A stretch of DNA of 25,893 nt from a virus. A program made the position numbers and the translations under genes. The stretch is taken from UHGV virus genome UHGV-1613375, one strand, 5' to 3'. Below, piece by piece: positions 1,431-19,093 of the stretch. Numbering within the stretch: the first letter of the stretch is position 1; each line of letters opens with the position of its first letter. A model generated the notes under the pieces. That model searched no databases, had not been told where the DNA came from, and saw only the letters and a list, made by a program, of their open reading frames with translations.

Positions 1431-1491
1431 AGGAAAGGCTTGCCAAAAAGAATGATGTTATAGTTTTCGAAAAAAATGCAGGAGAATAAAA

Positions 1492-2883
1492 ATGCTCTGT
1501 GGAGGTCTTTCTTTGCGAGACTTTATGCATAAACTGCATAAAGTTTTGCGACCAACGGGTCCAGTTGTTTCTATGGAACTGTTATTTGGACGTGAAAAAC
1601 ATGTAACCGATCTCGAATTGGCGCTTTATGCTACAGGTCGGCATGCTTTCATTTATGGTGATCGCGGAGTAGGAAAGACATCCTTAGCGCAAACTGTTGC
1701 TTTTAAGCTGCAGGAAGATGCTGAACCTATTTTGGTTGGCTGCGAGAAAGAATCCACTTTTTCAAGTGTCATGAATGACATTATTTTGCGAGGCACACCT
1801 CAGGATAAGAAAATCGATACACAGGGATGGAGCTTTGGCTTAAATGTGGCTGGAATTGGTGGTATCAATGCTGGTCAAAATCAAAAATATAATTATCCAG
1901 AACTGAAAATTGACTCAGTTTCTGCAGCCGTTCGGGCGTTGCAATTTTTAACTAAAGTTCACTCAAAGATTCCTTATATAGTTATCGATGAGTTTGACCA
2001 AATTGACTCTGATGAAGAACGACAAAAGTTTGGATCACTCATTAAACAACTTGGTGATCAGGCGTGTGAAGTAAAATTAATTTTTACGGGGATTGGTGAT
2101 TCTCTCGTTACTTTAATCGGAGGGCATAAATCAAGTGAGCGACAAATACATCAGGTACATCTCGATAGTTTACCATGGAATGGTCGTTTTCAAATAATTG
2201 ATAATGCTTTCGATGAGTTTGGCCTGACTGTCGATGATTCTGTCCGCTATAAAATTGCGGGTCTTAGTGACGGGTTCCCGAACTACATTCATCTTATTTG
2301 TGAAAAAATCCTTTTAACATGTCAAAGCTCAATACGTGAATACAGCTCTGTTGATTACAACCTTTTCATTAAAGGGTTAAATGATGCAATTGATTCAGTC
2401 TCGGAAACTTTAAGGCAAAGTTACACGGATGCAACAGAGGGACGTGATGAGTCATATAAGCATATTCTTTGGGCTATGTCCGATATGGCTGATTTGACCA
2501 GACATAAGACTCATATATCAGAATCGTACGTTAAAATTTGCAAATCGCTTGATGTAACACCTTTAGATAAATCCACGTTTGAGCGAAAGTTCAATGCATT
2601 GAAGAAACCGACATTTGGATGCATCATCATCCCTGCTTTAGGGAATCGTCCATCTTGGTTTCGATTTAGAGAAAACATGCTTCGTGGTTATATTCGAATG
2701 AGAGCGGAGCAGCATGGACTTGAGTTGGACTTCCAAAATTATCGTGTTGCTGGAGAGCATTCTGCTAGGGCTATAGGCAAATACTCTGCTTATAAACCGT
2801 TAACTAATGTTGAAGGACGAGTAGCCAAGCTAAGAGGTGATAACGACTGGCTTGACGACATAAAACCAAATCCTATTAAGTGA
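1492..2883 (+). CDS. Orc1/Cdc6-like (Arch_ATPase/AAA_16-type) P-loop NTPase with probable C-terminal winged-helix region; AT-rich cargo gene of unknown function
   Basis: SD CAGGAG at 1479-1484, 7 nt before the ATG. Walker A GDRGVGKTS (aa 56-64), Walker B YIVIDEFD (aa ~162-169), N-terminal LFGREKH motif and GLSDGFPNYIHL sensor-like motif, as in archaeal-type AAA+ ATPases (recalled family logo). Much more AT-rich than the flanking phage genes (by eye) and bracketed by terminators at 1403-1430 and 2907-2935. Confidence 0.8.
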   Translation: MLCGGLSLRDFMHKLHKVLRPTGPVVSMELLFGREKHVTDLELALYATGRHAFIYGDRGVGKTSLAQTVAFKLQEDAEPILVGCEKESTFSSVMNDIILRGTPQDKKIDTQGWSFGLNVAGIGGINAGQNQKYNYPELKIDSVSAAVRALQFLTKVHSKIPYIVIDEFDQIDSDEERQKFGSLIKQLGDQACEVKLIFTGIGDSLVTLIGGHKSSERQIHQVHLDSLPWNGRFQIIDNAFDEFGLTVDDSVRYKIAGLSDGFPNYIHLICEKILLTCQSSIREYSSVDYNLFIKGLNDAIDSVSETLRQSYTDATEGRDESYKHILWAMSDMADLTRHKTHISESYVKICKSLDVTPLDKSTFERKFNALKKPTFGCIIIPALGNRPSWFRFRENMLRGYIRMRAEQHGLELDFQNYRVAGEHSARAIGKYSAYKPLTNVEGRVAKLRGDNDWLDDIKPNPIK

Positions 2884-2906
2884 CGATTAATGTGAATAAT
2901 TAAATC

Positions 2907-2935
2907 AGGCTGCCTTCGGGTGGCCTTTTTATTTC
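2907..2935 (+). terminator. Rho-independent terminator after the NTPase gene
   Basis: AGGCTGCC(2907-2914) / GGTGGCCT(2919-2926), 8-bp stem including two G-U pairs, UUCG tetraloop, then TTTTTATTT. Confidence 0.7.
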
Positions 2936-2979
2936 CAACACAGCACCCGCAAATAATCGCAGGTGAGAGATAACTACAA

Positions 2980-3315
2980 ATGCCTCATAACCCAAATACT
3001 TGGCCGGACTGGCTGGAGTTGTTCCAGAGCTGGTGGCGTGGAGACACCCCGCTGGGGGCAGTGATTATGTCGATCGTTATGGCTGGTTTGCGTATCGCCT
3101 ATTTTGGCGGAGGTGGTGGCTGGAAGCGAAAAACGCTCGAGATTTTGCTCTGTGGTGCTCTGACGCTGACTTTTGCATCCGCGCTTGAGTATGTCGGATG
3201 GCCTAAATCGCTTTCTGTTGCCATTGGTGGTGGCGTTGGGCTGATCGGTGTTGATGCCATTCGTGGAGCTGCAATGCGAGTAATCGGTAATAAGTTTAGT
3301 GGCTCTAAGGAGTAA
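2980..3315 (+). CDS. Holin, divergent lambda S-like, three predicted transmembrane segments
   Basis: 111 aa immediately upstream of the endolysin. Three hydrophobic segments and a charged C-terminus; the LR..Y.GG....K pattern resembles lambda S (recalled). Confidence 0.65.
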   Translation: MPHNPNTWPDWLELFQSWWRGDTPLGAVIMSIVMAGLRIAYFGGGGGWKRKTLEILLCGALTLTFASALEYVGWPKSLSVAIGGGVGLIGVDAIRGAAMRVIGNKFSGSKE

Positions 3316-4364: not shown

Positions 4365-4973
4365 ATGGACTATTTTTACATAGCAACTAAATCGCAAAAT
4401 CCTTGGGTTAAGTATAGGCCTTTGGCAGTAGGAGATTTAGCTAGCACCTCATTCCCAAATCCCTTTTTTAATTATTTCTTAAGTTCAAACATCCCTCCAA
4501 TACCAGTAAATGTTAACGGGCATCTAACTGACTATACGAGAATGCAGTGGCTTTATGGCCTAAAGACAGGGTCACTTACTACTAAGTGTTCTGTACAGGA
4601 TATAGCGGCAGTTGGTCAAGAATTGGCTATGCATTTTTGTAAATATACTAGAGAACTGATTTGGGAAGCCGTTCGAGTTGAATATTACCCAAAAAAGCCT
4701 TCAAGACAGAAATGCTTATGGGTTTCACAAGGTGAAGAAAGTCTTTACTATTGGATTTCGCAGTTGGGATTGGGGGACAATCAGACTGTGTTCAGAGTTG
4801 AGTTGGATGGAGTTATACATGAGGCGAGTGATGAACATTTGATGAATGACGATATACCGTATGATATTGCCTTAGAAAAAGCTCATAAATATTGGAGTGG
4901 TGAAATAGTTGATCCGTTAAAAAAGGAAATACTTTTTGAAGGAAATATGCGGATTCTAGAGCACATTTTATAG
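4365..4973 (+). CDS. Hypothetical protein, AT-rich cargo gene between lysis cassette and HNH/terminase; no recognisable motif
   Basis: 202-aa ORF in an AT-rich island (by eye) with AT-rich flanks, followed by a weak hairpin plus T6. No signal peptide, TM segment or catalytic motif recognised. Confidence 0.6.
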   Translation: MDYFYIATKSQNPWVKYRPLAVGDLASTSFPNPFFNYFLSSNIPPIPVNVNGHLTDYTRMQWLYGLKTGSLTTKCSVQDIAAVGQELAMHFCKYTRELIWEAVRVEYYPKKPSRQKCLWVSQGEESLYYWISQLGLGDNQTVFRVELDGVIHEASDEHLMNDDIPYDIALEKAHKYWSGEIVDPLKKEILFEGNMRILEHIL

Positions 4974-15208: not shown

Positions 15209-17110
15209 ATGGCTGATAATTTTCAGCTGAAAGCCATCATCACCGCCGTTGACAGGCTGTCCGGCCCGCTTAAAGGTATGCAGCGTCAGCTTAAGGGGTT
15301 TCAGAAAGAAGTCTCCAGCCTTGCTCTGGGCGCTGCCGGGGCGGGTACTGCAATAATGGGGGCACTGGCACTCCCTGTAAAATCAGCCATCACCCTTGAA
15401 TCGAAGATGGCTGATGTCCGCAAAGTGGTGGACGGTCTGGATACGCCGGATGCGTTTAAGGCCATGACGGAGCAGGTACGCGCTTTGTCTACTGAGCTTC
15501 CCATGTCTGCAGACGGGATCGCGGAAATTGTGGCGGCTGGCGGTCAGGCCGGGATTGCACGTGATGAACTGATGCAGTTTGCCACTGATGCGGTGAAGAT
15601 GGGCGTGGCCTTTGATACCACGGCTGAAGAGTCCGGGCAGATGATGGCCCAGTGGCGTACTGCGTTTAATATGACGCAGGATGAAGTGGCTGGGCTGGCT
15701 GACAAAATCAACTACCTTGGTAATACCGGCCCGGCGAATGCGAAGAAAATCTCCGATATTGTTACGCGTATTGGTCCTTTAGGTGGTGTTGCAGGTGTGG
15801 CTTCCGGCGAAATCGCGGCAATGGGGGCAACCATTGCCGGGATGGGCGTGGAGTCAGAAATTGCCGCCACAGGGATCAAGAACTTCATGCTTTCCCTGAC
15901 CGCGGGAAATTCAGCGACAAAATCGCAGAAACAGGCATTACGTTTTCTGCGGATCAATCCGAAGAAATTAGCTGCTGATATGCAGAAAGATGCCCGGGGA
16001 ACCATGCTGTCTGTACTGGATGCGATGGCTAAAGTGCCTAAAGAAAAACAGGCAGCTGTGCTGAATGCCCTGTTCGGGAAAGAGTCTCTGGGCGCGATAG
16101 CACCTCTGCTGACTAACCTTGATTTGTTGCGTACCAACTTCAGGCGGGTTGCGGATTCCCAGCAGTATGGCAGTTCGATGCAGAAGGAATATGCTTCGAG
16201 GGCAGCGACGACGGAAAACCAGCTTTTACTTCTGCAAAATCAACTTGATGCCATTTCTTCCACTCTGGGGGAAACGTTTCTTCCTGAGGTTAATGATGGT
16301 CTTGAAGCGGTAAAACCGCTCCTTGAGGAAGTGAGAACGTTTGTCCGTGAAAACCCGGAGCTCGTTAAGACCATTGCTAAAATCGGTCTGGCTTTACTGA
16401 CAGTGGGGGCCGCTGCAGGCTCTTTGTCCAGAATCATGAAAGTTCTCGGCGGTGTGATGAATATGACGCCTGCTAAGGGTCTGATTGCTCTTCTGGTCGG
16501 TGCCGCTTACCTCATTATTGATAACTGGGAAACCGTAGGTCCTGTCATAAAAAAAGTCTGGCGCGTGGTGGATGAAACGGCGCAGGCGATGGGGGGATGG
16601 GAAACTGTTCTGAAAGCGATCGCCCTGTTTATGACAACCAAATGGGTTGCTGACGTTACCAAATCCATTACCGCAGTGACCAGAGAGATGCGTACGCTGG
16701 GGAAGGTGTCGGCAGAAACGGGATTGATGGGGAAAGGCCGCGGCTTTATCGGGAAGGCCGGGGTATATGGTTTTCTGGGAACCCTGATGTATGAGCCGGT
16801 TAAAGATACTCTGGAAAGTGTTGTTCCTGAAGATACAGTTAACTGGCTGGATAATAAAGGGCTGTTTCTGGCTTCAGACTGGACGCCTTTTTTTGATCGT
16901 AAAGAGTACGAGCAGTATCAGGCCAGCCTGAGTCAGTACAAACCCAATGTTCCGCTGTTGAATCCATCTTCTTCCATGACACAGCACAGCGAACTGAAAG
17001 TCACGTTCGAGAATGCTCCGCCAGGCATGAAGATAATTGATGTACCGGGCAAAGCCGATCCCCTGATGAAAATCACGCACGATGTGGGGTATTCTCCATT
17101 CAGGCGATAA
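15209..17110 (+). CDS. Tail tape measure protein
   Basis: 633 aa with Ala/Gly-rich helical and hydrophobic segments, located after the chaperone; SD GAGGAG upstream. Confidence 0.85.
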   Translation: MADNFQLKAIITAVDRLSGPLKGMQRQLKGFQKEVSSLALGAAGAGTAIMGALALPVKSAITLESKMADVRKVVDGLDTPDAFKAMTEQVRALSTELPMSADGIAEIVAAGGQAGIARDELMQFATDAVKMGVAFDTTAEESGQMMAQWRTAFNMTQDEVAGLADKINYLGNTGPANAKKISDIVTRIGPLGGVAGVASGEIAAMGATIAGMGVESEIAATGIKNFMLSLTAGNSATKSQKQALRFLRINPKKLAADMQKDARGTMLSVLDAMAKVPKEKQAAVLNALFGKESLGAIAPLLTNLDLLRTNFRRVADSQQYGSSMQKEYASRAATTENQLLLLQNQLDAISSTLGETFLPEVNDGLEAVKPLLEEVRTFVRENPELVKTIAKIGLALLTVGAAAGSLSRIMKVLGGVMNMTPAKGLIALLVGAAYLIIDNWETVGPVIKKVWRVVDETAQAMGGWETVLKAIALFMTTKWVADVTKSITAVTREMRTLGKVSAETGLMGKGRGFIGKAGVYGFLGTLMYEPVKDTLESVVPEDTVNWLDNKGLFLASDWTPFFDRKEYEQYQASLSQYKPNVPLLNPSSSMTQHSELKVTFENAPPGMKIIDVPGKADPLMKITHDVGYSPFRR

Positions 17111-17139
17111 TAACCCTACTTTAATCAAGTAGGGTTATT
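17109..17139 (+). other. Perfect 12-bp inverted repeat (hairpin) overlapping the tape-measure stop codon
   Basis: AATAACCCTACT(17109-17120) / AGTAGGGTTATT(17128-17139) with 7-nt loop TTAATCA; no clean T-run follows. Marks the upstream boundary of the third AT-rich insertion. Confidence 0.6.
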
Positions 17140-17174
17140 GAGTGGTAAAGTTTGTGCTGAATGTAGGAGAGAAT

Positions 17175-17663
17175 ATGAAGAAAATGTTTATATTGTTGTT
17201 GGCTGCAGGACTGCCATTAAACTCCTTTGCGAAGCCAGTAACGGAAAAGCAGCTTGCTACATACTTTATAGATAACGTTAAAACTTCAGCAGATAAGAAT
17301 ATAGATCTAGATGTAGGTGGAATAAATAGACTGTCTGTAATATGCCCAGCAAAGTCGGCAAGTGGAACTCTTTTAATAAAAAAAGCATCCTACGAGTTTA
17401 ATAAAGGTATTGGTGTTTTTGATTTTGAAAATAACTCACAATCTGCACCATTGGCTTTTATTGTACCAATTAGTGAGGATGAAAATAACTTTGACTCGGA
17501 AATTATTGGTTTCTCTTTTGCATTTAAAATGCCAAGAGGGCAATTCTTTGTTGATGTTACGAAATCAGGGAAGGTAAAGGCTGGCGTAAATATTAGTGGT
17601 GAAAGCGGAATTACTTATTCATCATGTAGAATAGATACTCATAATGTTGATTATGATCTTTAA
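17175..17663 (+). CDS. Predicted secreted/periplasmic protein of unknown function (AT-rich cargo gene inside the tail module)
   Basis: SD AGGAG at 17165-17169, 5 nt before the ATG; the track's upstream start at 17142 is less likely. N-terminal signal peptide MKKMFILLLAAGLPLNSFA with probable SPase I site after SFA; two Cys in the mature part. Strongly AT-rich (by eye); followed by a strong terminator. Confidence 0.7.
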   Translation: MKKMFILLLAAGLPLNSFAKPVTEKQLATYFIDNVKTSADKNIDLDVGGINRLSVICPAKSASGTLLIKKASYEFNKGIGVFDFENNSQSAPLAFIVPISEDENNFDSEIIGFSFAFKMPRGQFFVDVTKSGKVKAGVNISGESGITYSSCRIDTHNVDYDL

Positions 17664-17676
17664 TTTTATTACCTAA

Positions 17677-17708
17677 TAAAAAACCGCGTTTACACGCGGT
17701 TTTTATTT
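17677..17708 (+). terminator. Rho-independent (bidirectional-type) terminator after the secreted-protein gene
   Basis: AAAAAA, then ACCGCG(17683-17688) / CGCGGT(17695-17700) with loop TTTACA, then TTTTATTT. Confidence 0.8.
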
Positions 17709-17719
17709 GAGGTGACACC

Positions 17720-19093
17720 ATGGATTTTTCTCATATTTCTTCGTACCTATCCTCTAATTCTCGAAGTGGCTGGCGTGAAAAGCTACTTGAAGCATCATTT
17801 CGAGGTGTGCCGTTTAAGGTTGAAGAAGAAAGTGCGGGAACCGGTCGCCGTGTGGAAACACATGAATACCCGAACCGCGACAAGCCTTATACCGAAGATC
17901 TGGGAAAAGTCACTTTCCGCCCGTCCATCACAGCTTATGTGGTGGGAGATGACTGCTTTGACCAGCGCGATCGCCTGATTGACGCGCTGAATAAACCCGG
18001 TCCCGGCACGCTTGTCCATCCGACATACGGTGAGATGAAAGTCTGTGTTGACGGGGAAGTTCGGGTCAGCACATCGAAAAGTGAAGGGCGTATTGTCCGC
18101 TTTGACCTGAAGTTTGTCGAAGCGGGAGAACTCTCTTACCCCACATCAGGTGCGGCGACGGCGCAGACGCTGATGTCATCCTGTTCTGCACTGGATGACT
18201 GCATCAGTGACAGCTTCAGCGGTTTCAGTATCGATGGCGTGGCGGATTTCGTGCAGAACGACGTTATCGGTAATGCCAGCATAATGCTGGGGTATGTTTC
18301 TGATGCGATGAAAGTGGTGGATTCTACCGTATCGGATGCCGCCAGGCTGTTGCAGGGGGATATCTCGGTACTTCTGCCGCCGCCATCGTCAGGCAAAAAT
18401 TTCGTTGAGCAGGTGCAGAAAATGTGGCGTACCGGGAAACGCCTTTATGGTAACGCCAGCGACCTGGTCACCATGATCAAAACGCTTTCCGGTGTCAGCC
18501 TCGGCAGCGATCTGCAACCGCGCGGCGTCTGGAAAACGGACAGTAAAACCACCGCCACGGCTACGCAGCAGCGTAACGTGGTTGCCAGCACCCTTCGTAC
18601 GACCGCAATCAGCGAAGCGGCGTATGCCGTCACGCGATTGCCTGCGCCAACAACTTCCGCGGTGATGCAGAATTCCGCAGTGGGGCAGGCAACAACACCC
18701 GCGCAGAGCACTGGCTGGCCTGCCGTCACGCATCCGGCACTGAACAATGCACCGGCGGTGAAAAACACGGTTGACCTGCCGACGTGGGAAGAACTGACTG
18801 ACATTCGCGACACACTGAATACGGCAATTGATAAGGAGTTGTCCCGTACAACCAGTGATGCGCTGTTTCTGGCGCTGCGCCGGGTGAAAGCAGATCTGAA
18901 TGCGGATATCAACACGCGCCTTGAACAGTCTGCACGGATCATTCAGCGCACACCGGATGAGGTTTTACCCGCGCTGGTGCTGGCGGCGACCTGGTTTGAT
19001 AACGCGGCGCGTGACGCGGACATTATCCGGCGTAATGCCATTACGCATCCCGGCTTTGTGCCGGTGATCCCTCTGAAGGTGCCAGTGCAATGA
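17720..19093 (+). CDS. DNA circulation protein (Mu gpN-like)
   Basis: N-terminal W..KLLEASFRGVPF...GRRVETHEYPNRDKPYTEDLG matches the DNA-circulation N-terminal domain signature (recalled); 457 aa, right after the tape measure. Confidence 0.8.
   Translation: MDFSHISSYLSSNSRSGWREKLLEASFRGVPFKVEEESAGTGRRVETHEYPNRDKPYTEDLGKVTFRPSITAYVVGDDCFDQRDRLIDALNKPGPGTLVHPTYGEMKVCVDGEVRVSTSKSEGRIVRFDLKFVEAGELSYPTSGAATAQTLMSSCSALDDCISDSFSGFSIDGVADFVQNDVIGNASIMLGYVSDAMKVVDSTVSDAARLLQGDISVLLPPPSSGKNFVEQVQKMWRTGKRLYGNASDLVTMIKTLSGVSLGSDLQPRGVWKTDSKTTATATQQRNVVASTLRTTAISEAAYAVTRLPAPTTSAVMQNSAVGQATTPAQSTGWPAVTHPALNNAPAVKNTVDLPTWEELTDIRDTLNTAIDKELSRTTSDALFLALRRVKADLNADINTRLEQSARIIQRTPDEVLPALVLAATWFDNAARDADIIRRNAITHPGFVPVIPLKVPVQ

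Follow-up and report, generated by a model that had tools for sequence, protein, structure and literature searches.

The stretch UHGV-1613375, analysed over its whole length of 25.9 kb (the window), is the late region of an Escherichia coli lambdoid prophage. Between the tail tape-measure protein (TMP) gene and the DNA-circulation gene of its contractile tail lies an AT-rich open reading frame (ORF), here called the cargo gene, which encodes a 162-amino-acid protein. We found that this gene is optional in otherwise near-isogenic tails and is very likely a moron. Its product carries a predicted Sec signal peptide, is modelled as a small β-barrel and likely resides in the periplasm. We tentatively favour the reading that this accessory cassette supplies an exported barrel that acts in the periplasm against related incoming phages, an account that falls only a little short of being probable.

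The cargo gene is an optional insert in the tail module

The initial annotation had placed an AT-rich ORF between two tail genes said to be normally adjacent, and had taken it for a moron with an exported product. Base composition agreed with this view: the GC content was 0.342 in the ORF (17175-17663) and 0.557 in the tail module without the insert. When positions 16600-18300 were compared with 5,426 complete E. coli genomes by megablast, 1,091 genomes matched, with the match covering the insert in 100 of them; searched alone, the insert was present in 101. The related DNA-circulation gene or tail type is carried by ~1,091 genomes, and the cargo gene is missing from ~90% of related tail clusters. 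The junction of the TMP and DNA-circulation genes itself occurs in about one-fifth of complete E. coli genomes, ST131-type clinical lineages included. Where the gene is present, it can be highly conserved. Many E. coli genomes of human and wastewater origin, O25b:H4-ST131 strains among them, share the surrounding 1.7 kb at 100% identity, and one such identical prophage is found in NZ_AP022525 (protein WP_001566765.1). The isolated phage vB_EcoM-720R4 (ON470603), whose nucleotides are ~98% identical to the window, carries in this slot a gene whose product is 96% identical.

In relatives without the cargo gene, the two tail genes were indeed close neighbours. The DNA-circulation start follows the TMP stop after 24 nucleotides (nt) in loci L002 and L003, and a 60-nt gap without cargo separates the genes in L016-L019. 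L002 is 99.2% identical to the window in TMP, 100% in the tube protein and 99.7% in the baseplate. Because such near-isogenic prophages (TMP 99% identical) have no cargo gene, the gene is dispensable and not a part of the tail. A structural protein of a Mu-type tail would be expected in all related tail clusters; here, both empty and differently occupied alleles were found.

Comparison with the empty alleles also set the limits of the insert, which had been expected to coincide with an upstream hairpin. Homology stops at 17100, in the last TMP codons, and restarts at 17768, 48 nt into the DNA-circulation gene; for alleles with a different TMP type (L004, L005, L016 and L017), it restarts at 17789. 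The variable module contains the 3′ end of the TMP gene (its last three or four codons, from ~17101, and the stop codon at 17108-17110), the hairpin, the ORF, a terminator and the start of the DNA-circulation gene (16 codons) with the Shine-Dalgarno site before it. Its GC content is 0.35, against 0.52-0.56 in the flanks. The Shine-Dalgarno site (GAGGTG at 17709-17714) belongs to the DNA-circulation gene, and the 16 codons that follow (17720-17767) are AT-rich and module-specific; the Pfam domain DNA_circ_N begins only at residue 22. This N-terminal extension, MDFSHISSYLSSNSRS, is unlike that of the empty allele (MDLSSFPTRPS...) and is missing where alleles start MTWKDRLQ, so the N-terminus of the DNA-circulation protein varies with the cargo module.

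The locus combines extra DNA between genes that are adjacent in close relatives, a deviant base composition and, at the sequence level, its own transcription terminator, three features of morons in their published (Juhala/Hendrix) definition (PMC3594210). This architecture is classical and already known in kind. What is new is the uncharacterised protein family and the recurrent use of the TMP/DNA-circulation slot for genes of envelope proteins.

A terminator and a second hairpin flank the gene

The downstream terminator had been described as bidirectional in type, and its structure fits that description. The stem stands between an A-run on its 5′ side and a T-run on its 3′ side, and it folds strongly on both strands (−20.1 kcal/mol on the + strand and −19.5 kcal/mol on the − strand; z = −5.2 and −6.2, respectively), with none of 200 shuffled sequences folding as well. 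A consensus terminator scan did not list the 17679-17708 stem; we think that this is because the scan lengthens the stem through the A/T pairs and thereby uses up the T-run. A comparable terminator ends every forward-strand cargo gene that we read in this slot (L008, L004 and L013), where it stands directly before the Shine-Dalgarno site of the DNA-circulation gene.

Upstream, the initial annotation had reported a perfect 12-bp inverted repeat overlapping the TMP stop and had treated it as an insertion boundary. The repeat itself was found, with arms of 13 nt, and it overlaps the last two bases of the stop codon; the boundary did not hold, since the breakpoints lie elsewhere. The hairpin folds as RNA with −18.6 kcal/mol (z = −5.1), none of 200 shuffles was as good, and no such repeat is expected by chance. 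Together with the downstream terminator, it makes up the only perfect inverted repeats of at least 11 nt with a short loop in the whole window. It is terminator-like without a proper U-tract. In the TF5 prophage and phage 720R4, the left arm has three uncompensated changes, and the hairpin is intact in some other 98%-identical variants. At the divergent homologue loci L008 and L013, no equivalent was seen by eye. The left-arm changes and the positions of the homology breakpoints (17100 and 17768) rule out a conserved functional boundary.

Two other origins of the hairpin were considered. A repeated, mobile or recombination element is ruled out, as the hairpin is unique within the window and is not repeated in enterobacteria. 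For a template-switch ('quasipalindrome') origin, the 98%-identical variants include perfect as well as imperfect forms, which leaves the direction of change undecidable. The exact core of the stem (AACCCTACTT / AAGTAGGGTT) matched genomes 18 times, against ~1 match expected from length alone. The matches in the genome collection came from unrelated taxa only, mostly of low GC content, and those that we read look like ordinary terminators; among viral contigs, 7 of the 13 matches were the same E. coli module. The excess probably reflects the biased sequence space of terminators, not homology.

The cargo product is predicted to be an exported barrel

RefSeq gives the same reading frame as hypothetical protein WP_001566765.1. 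A GTG at 17142 appears as an alternative start in the ORF listing; the ATG at 17175 was favoured because of the Shine-Dalgarno motif AGGAG at 17165-17169. The Sec signal peptide proposed for this protein stood up to inspection. The predicted leader MKKMFILLLAAGLPLNSFA, followed by KP, divides into n-, h- and c-regions (MKK / MFILLLAAGL / PLNSFA, with cleavage before K), obeys the −3/−1 rule (S-F-A) and has no lipobox cysteine. The call was made by inspection and by conservation among homologues, eight of which, all full-length, have equivalent leaders that differ in sequence and end in xxA just before K or G. In the 48%-identical homologue P0007, the leader reads LTSCCAQA and then K, so that this member may be a lipoprotein instead.

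AlphaFold2 reached a predicted local distance difference test (pLDDT) score of only 38 with three sequences and became confident once a hidden Markov model (HMM) search had added distant members. With 15 sequences, the mature protein was modelled at a pLDDT of 89.2 and a predicted template modelling score of 0.85. The predicted structure is an 18-residue N-terminal helix followed by eight β-strands that form a soluble barrel. In this model, C57 lies directly after the first strand and C151 in the last, and a Cys57-Cys151 disulfide that closes the barrel is plausible. An outer-membrane barrel of the Lom/Ail/OmpX kind was ruled out by the short strands, the N-terminal helix, the two cysteines and the non-aromatic C-terminus.

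Structural comparison yielded generic fold matches, including designed barrels, avidins and lipocalins, all at ≤15% identity. Periplasmic inhibitor or immunity barrels were among them (PhiA, 6.3; PliC, 5.8 and 5.3; BtaiB, 5.8; ACP, 5.1). Foldseek searches against PDB and the BFVD viral library returned nothing below E = 1e-3. The family profile matched no solved structure in the PDB sequences below E = 0.25, and its ten matches up to E = 10 did not include PliC/MliC.

The family is small and its place beside the tape-measure gene is old

A word-indexed search recovered enterobacterial relatives only, in a 416-member cluster and a 389-member cluster (48% identity; Shigella and E. coli), and an exhaustive HMM search of 1.84 billion cluster representatives gave 17 matches. 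Most full-length members have 148-176 residues, a signal peptide and two cysteines (C57 and C151 in the window protein), together with the motifs CP-x-x-SASG and F-x-F-K-M-P-x-G-Q-F-F-V-x-V-x-K-x-G-K-x-x-A-G-V-N. The exact window protein occurs on at least 1,000 contigs and close variants occur in Salmonella; every source names it a hypothetical or phage protein. Neither Pfam nor NCBIfam matched the query or any of 15 family members (Pfam up to E = 10), PADLOC did not match the window protein, and the only PHROG match was phrog_5586, labelled 'unknown function', with no superinfection-exclusion (Sie) PHROG. The family is thus very small and uncharacterised, and occurs in the Enterobacteriaceae and closely related groups, with Pantoea the source of one named member. 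One match, the 1,036-residue repeat protein P0025 (E = 2.4e-4), was considered as a hint of a wider family and judged to be a spurious low-complexity match arising from its repetitive sequence.

Homologues were found in the same slot of tail clusters that have themselves diverged, a 48%-identical one in L007, L008 and L009 and a 39%-identical one in L013. Identities to the window for TMP, cargo and DNA-circulation protein were 72, 49 and 53% in L008 and 61, 39 and 53% in L013. Because homologues fill the same slot where the neighbours are 50-70% identical, the cargo gene is an old resident of the slot that was lost or swapped out in some lineages, not necessarily a recent insertion. Its evolution is faster than that of the adjoining genes, and the empty allele may well represent a loss.

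Two distant members, P0018 (Pantoea) and P0020, lie outside tail modules (L011, VWUN01000028; L012, SRR13837185_96646). Their neighbours are ParA, a cI-like repressor, IncFII RepA and PemK/MazE, and the contigs look like phage-plasmids, the maintenance and immunity regions of which are normally expressed during carriage. This location speaks for an accessory role and makes a structural one less likely.

The ratio of non-synonymous to synonymous substitution rates (dN/dS) was 0.24-0.27 against the 49%- and 39%-identical homologues, values that read as upper bounds since dS is saturated. This marks the cargo ORF as a genuine gene under constraint. Between 98%-identical cargo alleles the ratio was 0.82 (7.5 non-synonymous and 2.5 synonymous changes), and it was 0.61 in another comparison of close alleles, against 0.07 for the TMP end and 0.18 for the DNA-circulation gene (Fisher p ~0.007-0.02, from small counts). 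The high ratio between close alleles fits either arms-race or diversifying pressure or weak constraint. Variants with internal deletions (P0002, P0003 and P0005) were found in metagenome assemblies. In Shigella flexneri and S. sonnei, most copies of the P0007 cluster are partial and lie at the ends of ~5-kb contigs, which suggests a repeat or an insertion-sequence-associated break beside the P0007-type gene in Shigella.

The junction is a hotspot for cargo genes

The TMP/DNA-circulation junction is a cargo hotspot, because other prophages carry different AT-rich genes for envelope proteins at this site. One other occupant, a 176-residue protein with an N-terminal membrane anchor (PHROG 5485; L004 and L020), was present in 178 genomes. 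Another, encoded on the reverse strand in 72 genomes (L005 and L015), is a membrane-anchored OB-fold protein (Pfam tRNA_anti-like) of PHROG 8545, which is labelled 'superinfection exclusion Sie-like'. All cargo genes measured at the junction are AT-rich (GC 0.34-0.40), and an export or anchor sequence is present at the N-terminus of all three products that were examined closely (the window protein, the 176-residue protein and the OB-fold protein).

In L004 (TMP at 1461-3293), the TMP is 24% identical to that of the window, tube, DNA-circulation and baseplate proteins are 98-99% identical, and the cargo type differs too. The TMP gene is thus itself mosaic, and the pattern suggests that it is exchanged together with the adjacent cargo as one recombination unit. 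In the degraded prophage of L020 (1503-2783; NZ_CM142791), the TMP, DNA-circulation and baseplate-J genes are fragments and the 176-residue cargo gene is intact, which suggests that cargo is kept after decay of the tail genes. In L014 (2387-3423), the slot holds two genes, for a 195-residue HIRAN-domain protein with weak PADLOC PDC-M03B matches and then for a 148-residue member of the cargo family.

The defence hotspots of P2 and P4 resemble this slot in that a fixed junction of conserved phage genes holds interchangeable accessory genes. They differ in phage type and junction, and in place of recognised multi-gene defence systems the present slot holds genes for single small envelope proteins. 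Literature searches on the TMP/DNA-circulation slot, phage 720R4 and the OB-fold 'Sie-like' family returned nothing relevant. Immunity genes that act at the envelope and are inherited with the TMP allele might have an undescribed hotspot in this junction. In that case, the window family would represent a novel type of exclusion factor, in which a soluble barrel in the periplasm would recognise the TMP or the tail tip of phages on their way through this compartment, and the diversification of its alleles (dN/dS ~0.8 between 98%-identical alleles) would track TMP variation. We regard this extended proposal as speculative and rather unlikely.

Superinfection exclusion is a tentative explanation

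The reading that we favour runs as follows. The cassette is very likely a self-contained, AT-rich and horizontally exchanged moron in a variable slot between the TMP and DNA-circulation genes. In lytic growth, it would be co-transcribed with the tail genes, as a Q-type antiterminator could let RNA polymerase pass the cassette terminator; the cargo may be expressed in the lysogen as well. Export through Sec would yield a soluble periplasmic protein of 143 residues, which would disturb genome delivery by related incoming phages at the tail-tip or tape-measure step. The position right after the TMP gene is kept in three diverged tail lineages, which we count as a link to the injection machinery. 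Superinfection exclusion as such is our best guess at the function, one that we consider possible and somewhat short of probable.

This reading has parallels in two known systems. The helical Spackle protein is encoded by an early gene of the lytic phage T4, whereas the window protein is a predicted barrel next to a TMP that matches only PhageMin_Tail. The mechanism proposed for the window protein is of the same class as that of Spackle, described in PMC7677548 as a periplasmic phage protein that excludes by binding the lysozyme domain of incoming gp5, a tail-tip component. The moron prototype, gene 15 of HK97, lies in the tail operon beside the TMP gene and encodes an exclusion protein, the specificity of which depends on the tail region of the incoming phage (PMC3594210). 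Like the window cargo, gene 15 is optional, deviates in base composition, adjoins the tape-measure gene of a temperate E. coli phage with an HK97-type head, and has a product that leaves the cytoplasm. The two proteins have no sequence similarity. The gene for HK97 gp15, a small protein of the inner membrane, lies upstream of the TMP gene, whereas that for the window protein, a predicted soluble β-barrel with a signal peptide, lies downstream of it, and a phenotype is known for gp15 only.

Several observations weigh against exclusion. Homology offers no evidence for it, as the searches linked the protein to no known family of Sie, defence or virulence proteins, and a generic barrel fold fits ligand binding or enzyme inhibition equally well. 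The family member in L014 stands beside a TMP only 22% identical to that of the window, and P0018 and P0020 do not adjoin any TMP gene. L002 has a 99.2%-identical TMP and no cargo; because such a same-TMP tail exists, partnership with the TMP is not obligatory. The high dN/dS between close alleles rests on ~10 substitutions, which relaxed constraint explains equally well. The promoter is the weakest point of the idea that the lysogen expresses the gene. A sigma-70 consensus scan found no match on the + strand upstream of the cargo ORF, and a hexamer scan did not give a credible promoter of its own either, so expression in the lysogen, which exclusion would need, finds no support there.

The strongest alternative is a moron for host fitness or virulence, in which the barrel benefits the lysogen against a threat other than phages. 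Like PliC/MliC, PhiA or ACP, it might inhibit a peptidoglycan hydrolase (host lysozyme, a lytic transglycosylase or the type VI secretion effector of a competitor), or it might bind a small hydrophobic ligand as lipocalin-like barrels do. Such a role would suit the frequent occurrence of the cargo gene in human isolates of extraintestinal and ST131 type and its presence in Salmonella. Precedents for exported moron virulence factors are the lipoprotein Bor and the outer-membrane barrel Lom of lambda, encoded in or beside lambdoid late or tail genes. The window protein, unlike these two, has no lipobox, no C-terminal aromatic residue, short predicted strands and two cysteines. The theme of exported moron products in virulence has been reviewed (PMC3594210). 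Against a hydrolase inhibitor stand the absence of PliC/MliC from the PDB profile matches up to E = 10 and of any Pfam family, MliC included, for the 15 members. The window protein has no detectable sequence or profile relation to PliC/MliC, PhiA or ACP, unrelated barrels score higher, and the additional N-terminal helix and the pattern of conserved motifs set the window protein apart from these inhibitors. The lasting adjacency to the TMP gene in diverged clusters and the 'Sie-like' companion in the slot fit a phage-directed role better. We therefore judge a host-fitness role unlikely, though it ranks next after exclusion.

The product might instead serve the phage's own lytic cycle as a late, exported protein that masks or modifies the envelope, so that progeny are not lost on debris or infected cells, or that aids lysis and release. 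Envelope masking that spares released progeny in this way is known from T5 Llp. Late co-transcription is the only route that the sequence directly supports, because the gene lies on the same strand inside the late operon, with a good Shine-Dalgarno site and no evident promoter; a Q-type antiterminator is encoded upstream. However, the gene is optional in near-isogenic phages, and its distant homologues lie in phage-plasmid-like maintenance and immunity regions, not in late operons. A dedicated strong terminator right after a gene is, moreover, the signature of an independent transcription unit (PMC3594210). A role confined to lytic growth is thus improbable.

It is very improbable that the ORF is a functionless hitchhiker, a decaying or selfish frame carried along by flanking recombination. 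The close-allele dN/dS values of 0.82 and 0.61 and the internal deletions could be read in this way, but the constraint seen at 39-49% identity, the conserved cysteines, motifs and signal peptide, the confident fold prediction and the spread of the exact sequence over so many contigs speak for a maintained gene. A tail structural or assembly component, such as a tape-measure-associated or baseplate accessory protein, would explain a position between two tail genes that is kept across diverged clusters, but it is scarcely credible given a Sec signal peptide that would take the protein out of the cytoplasm, where tails assemble, the absence of the gene beside 99%-identical TMP and baseplate genes and from ~90% of related clusters, and the unrelated genes, one on the opposite strand, that fill the slot in other prophages.

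As it stands, the locus is a well-behaved case of a known phenomenon, a normal phage moron. If periplasmic exclusion is its function, the barrel would be a new structural class among the few envelope-level exclusion proteins that are understood mechanistically, and the TMP/DNA-circulation junction would offer a simple, alignable hotspot for mining envelope-acting anti-phage genes. If it inhibits lysozyme or another peptidoglycan hydrolase, pathogenic E. coli and Salmonella would owe a fitness factor to a prophage.

Feature coordinates and further cargo genes in the window

The positions of the features discussed above are collected in Table 1.

Table 1. Features of the cargo locus and its surroundings in UHGV-1613375 (window coordinates)
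Feature	Position	Strand	Description or basis
Q-type antiterminator gene	774-1352		Matches DUF1133 and Phage_antitermQ
TMP gene, 633 amino acids, left neighbour of cargo	15209-17110	+	Pfam PhageMin_Tail, E = 2e-42; RefSeq: tape measure protein
Variable cargo module	17101-17767	+	667 bp, against 91 bp in the near-isogenic empty L002 and L003; blastn breakpoints and alignment
Perfect inverted repeat	17109-17139		13-nt arms 17109-17121 / 17127-17139, 5-nt loop; AATAACCCTACTT-TAATC-AAGTAGGGTTATT
Weak candidate extended −10, TGgTAAAGT	17143-17151	+	Hexamer scan; sole promoter-like feature 5′ of the ORF; unconvincing
Shine-Dalgarno AGGAG, 5 nt 5′ of ATG	17165-17169	+	Read from the sequence
Cargo ORF, 162 amino acids	17175-17663	+	ATG 17175 to TAA 17661-17663
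Predicted Sec (signal peptidase I type) signal peptide, 19 amino acids	17175-17231	+	MKKMFILLLAAGLPLNSFA
Mature protein, 143 amino acids and stop	17232-17663	+	Predicted N-terminal helix, then 8-stranded β-barrel; Cys57 and Cys151 conserved; PHROG 5586
Intrinsic terminator, bidirectional in form	17679-17708		11-bp stem 17679-17689 / 17694-17704, 4-nt loop; GC core CCGCG/CGCGG
DNA-circulation (Mu gp43/N-like) gene, right neighbour of cargo	17720-19093	+	Pfam DNA_circ_N, E = 2.5e-34, residues 22-108

Across the window, the genes are arranged in the order Q-type antiterminator, lysis cassette, P27-type terminase, HK97-type head and Mu-type contractile tail. Two further AT-rich genes lie within this series. 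One, at 4365-4973 (GC ~0.38-0.40) between the lysis cassette and the HNH/terminase genes, encodes a 202-residue DUF2441 protein; PADLOC gave no match for it, and it is likely another cargo gene. The other, at 1492-2883 (GC ~0.37-0.42) between the Q-type antiterminator and the holin, encodes a 463-residue STAND/AAA_16-type ATPase. Its PADLOC matches were weak only (mad8 and PDC-S01, in the P-loop region), and it looks like a further moron and a possible defence gene.

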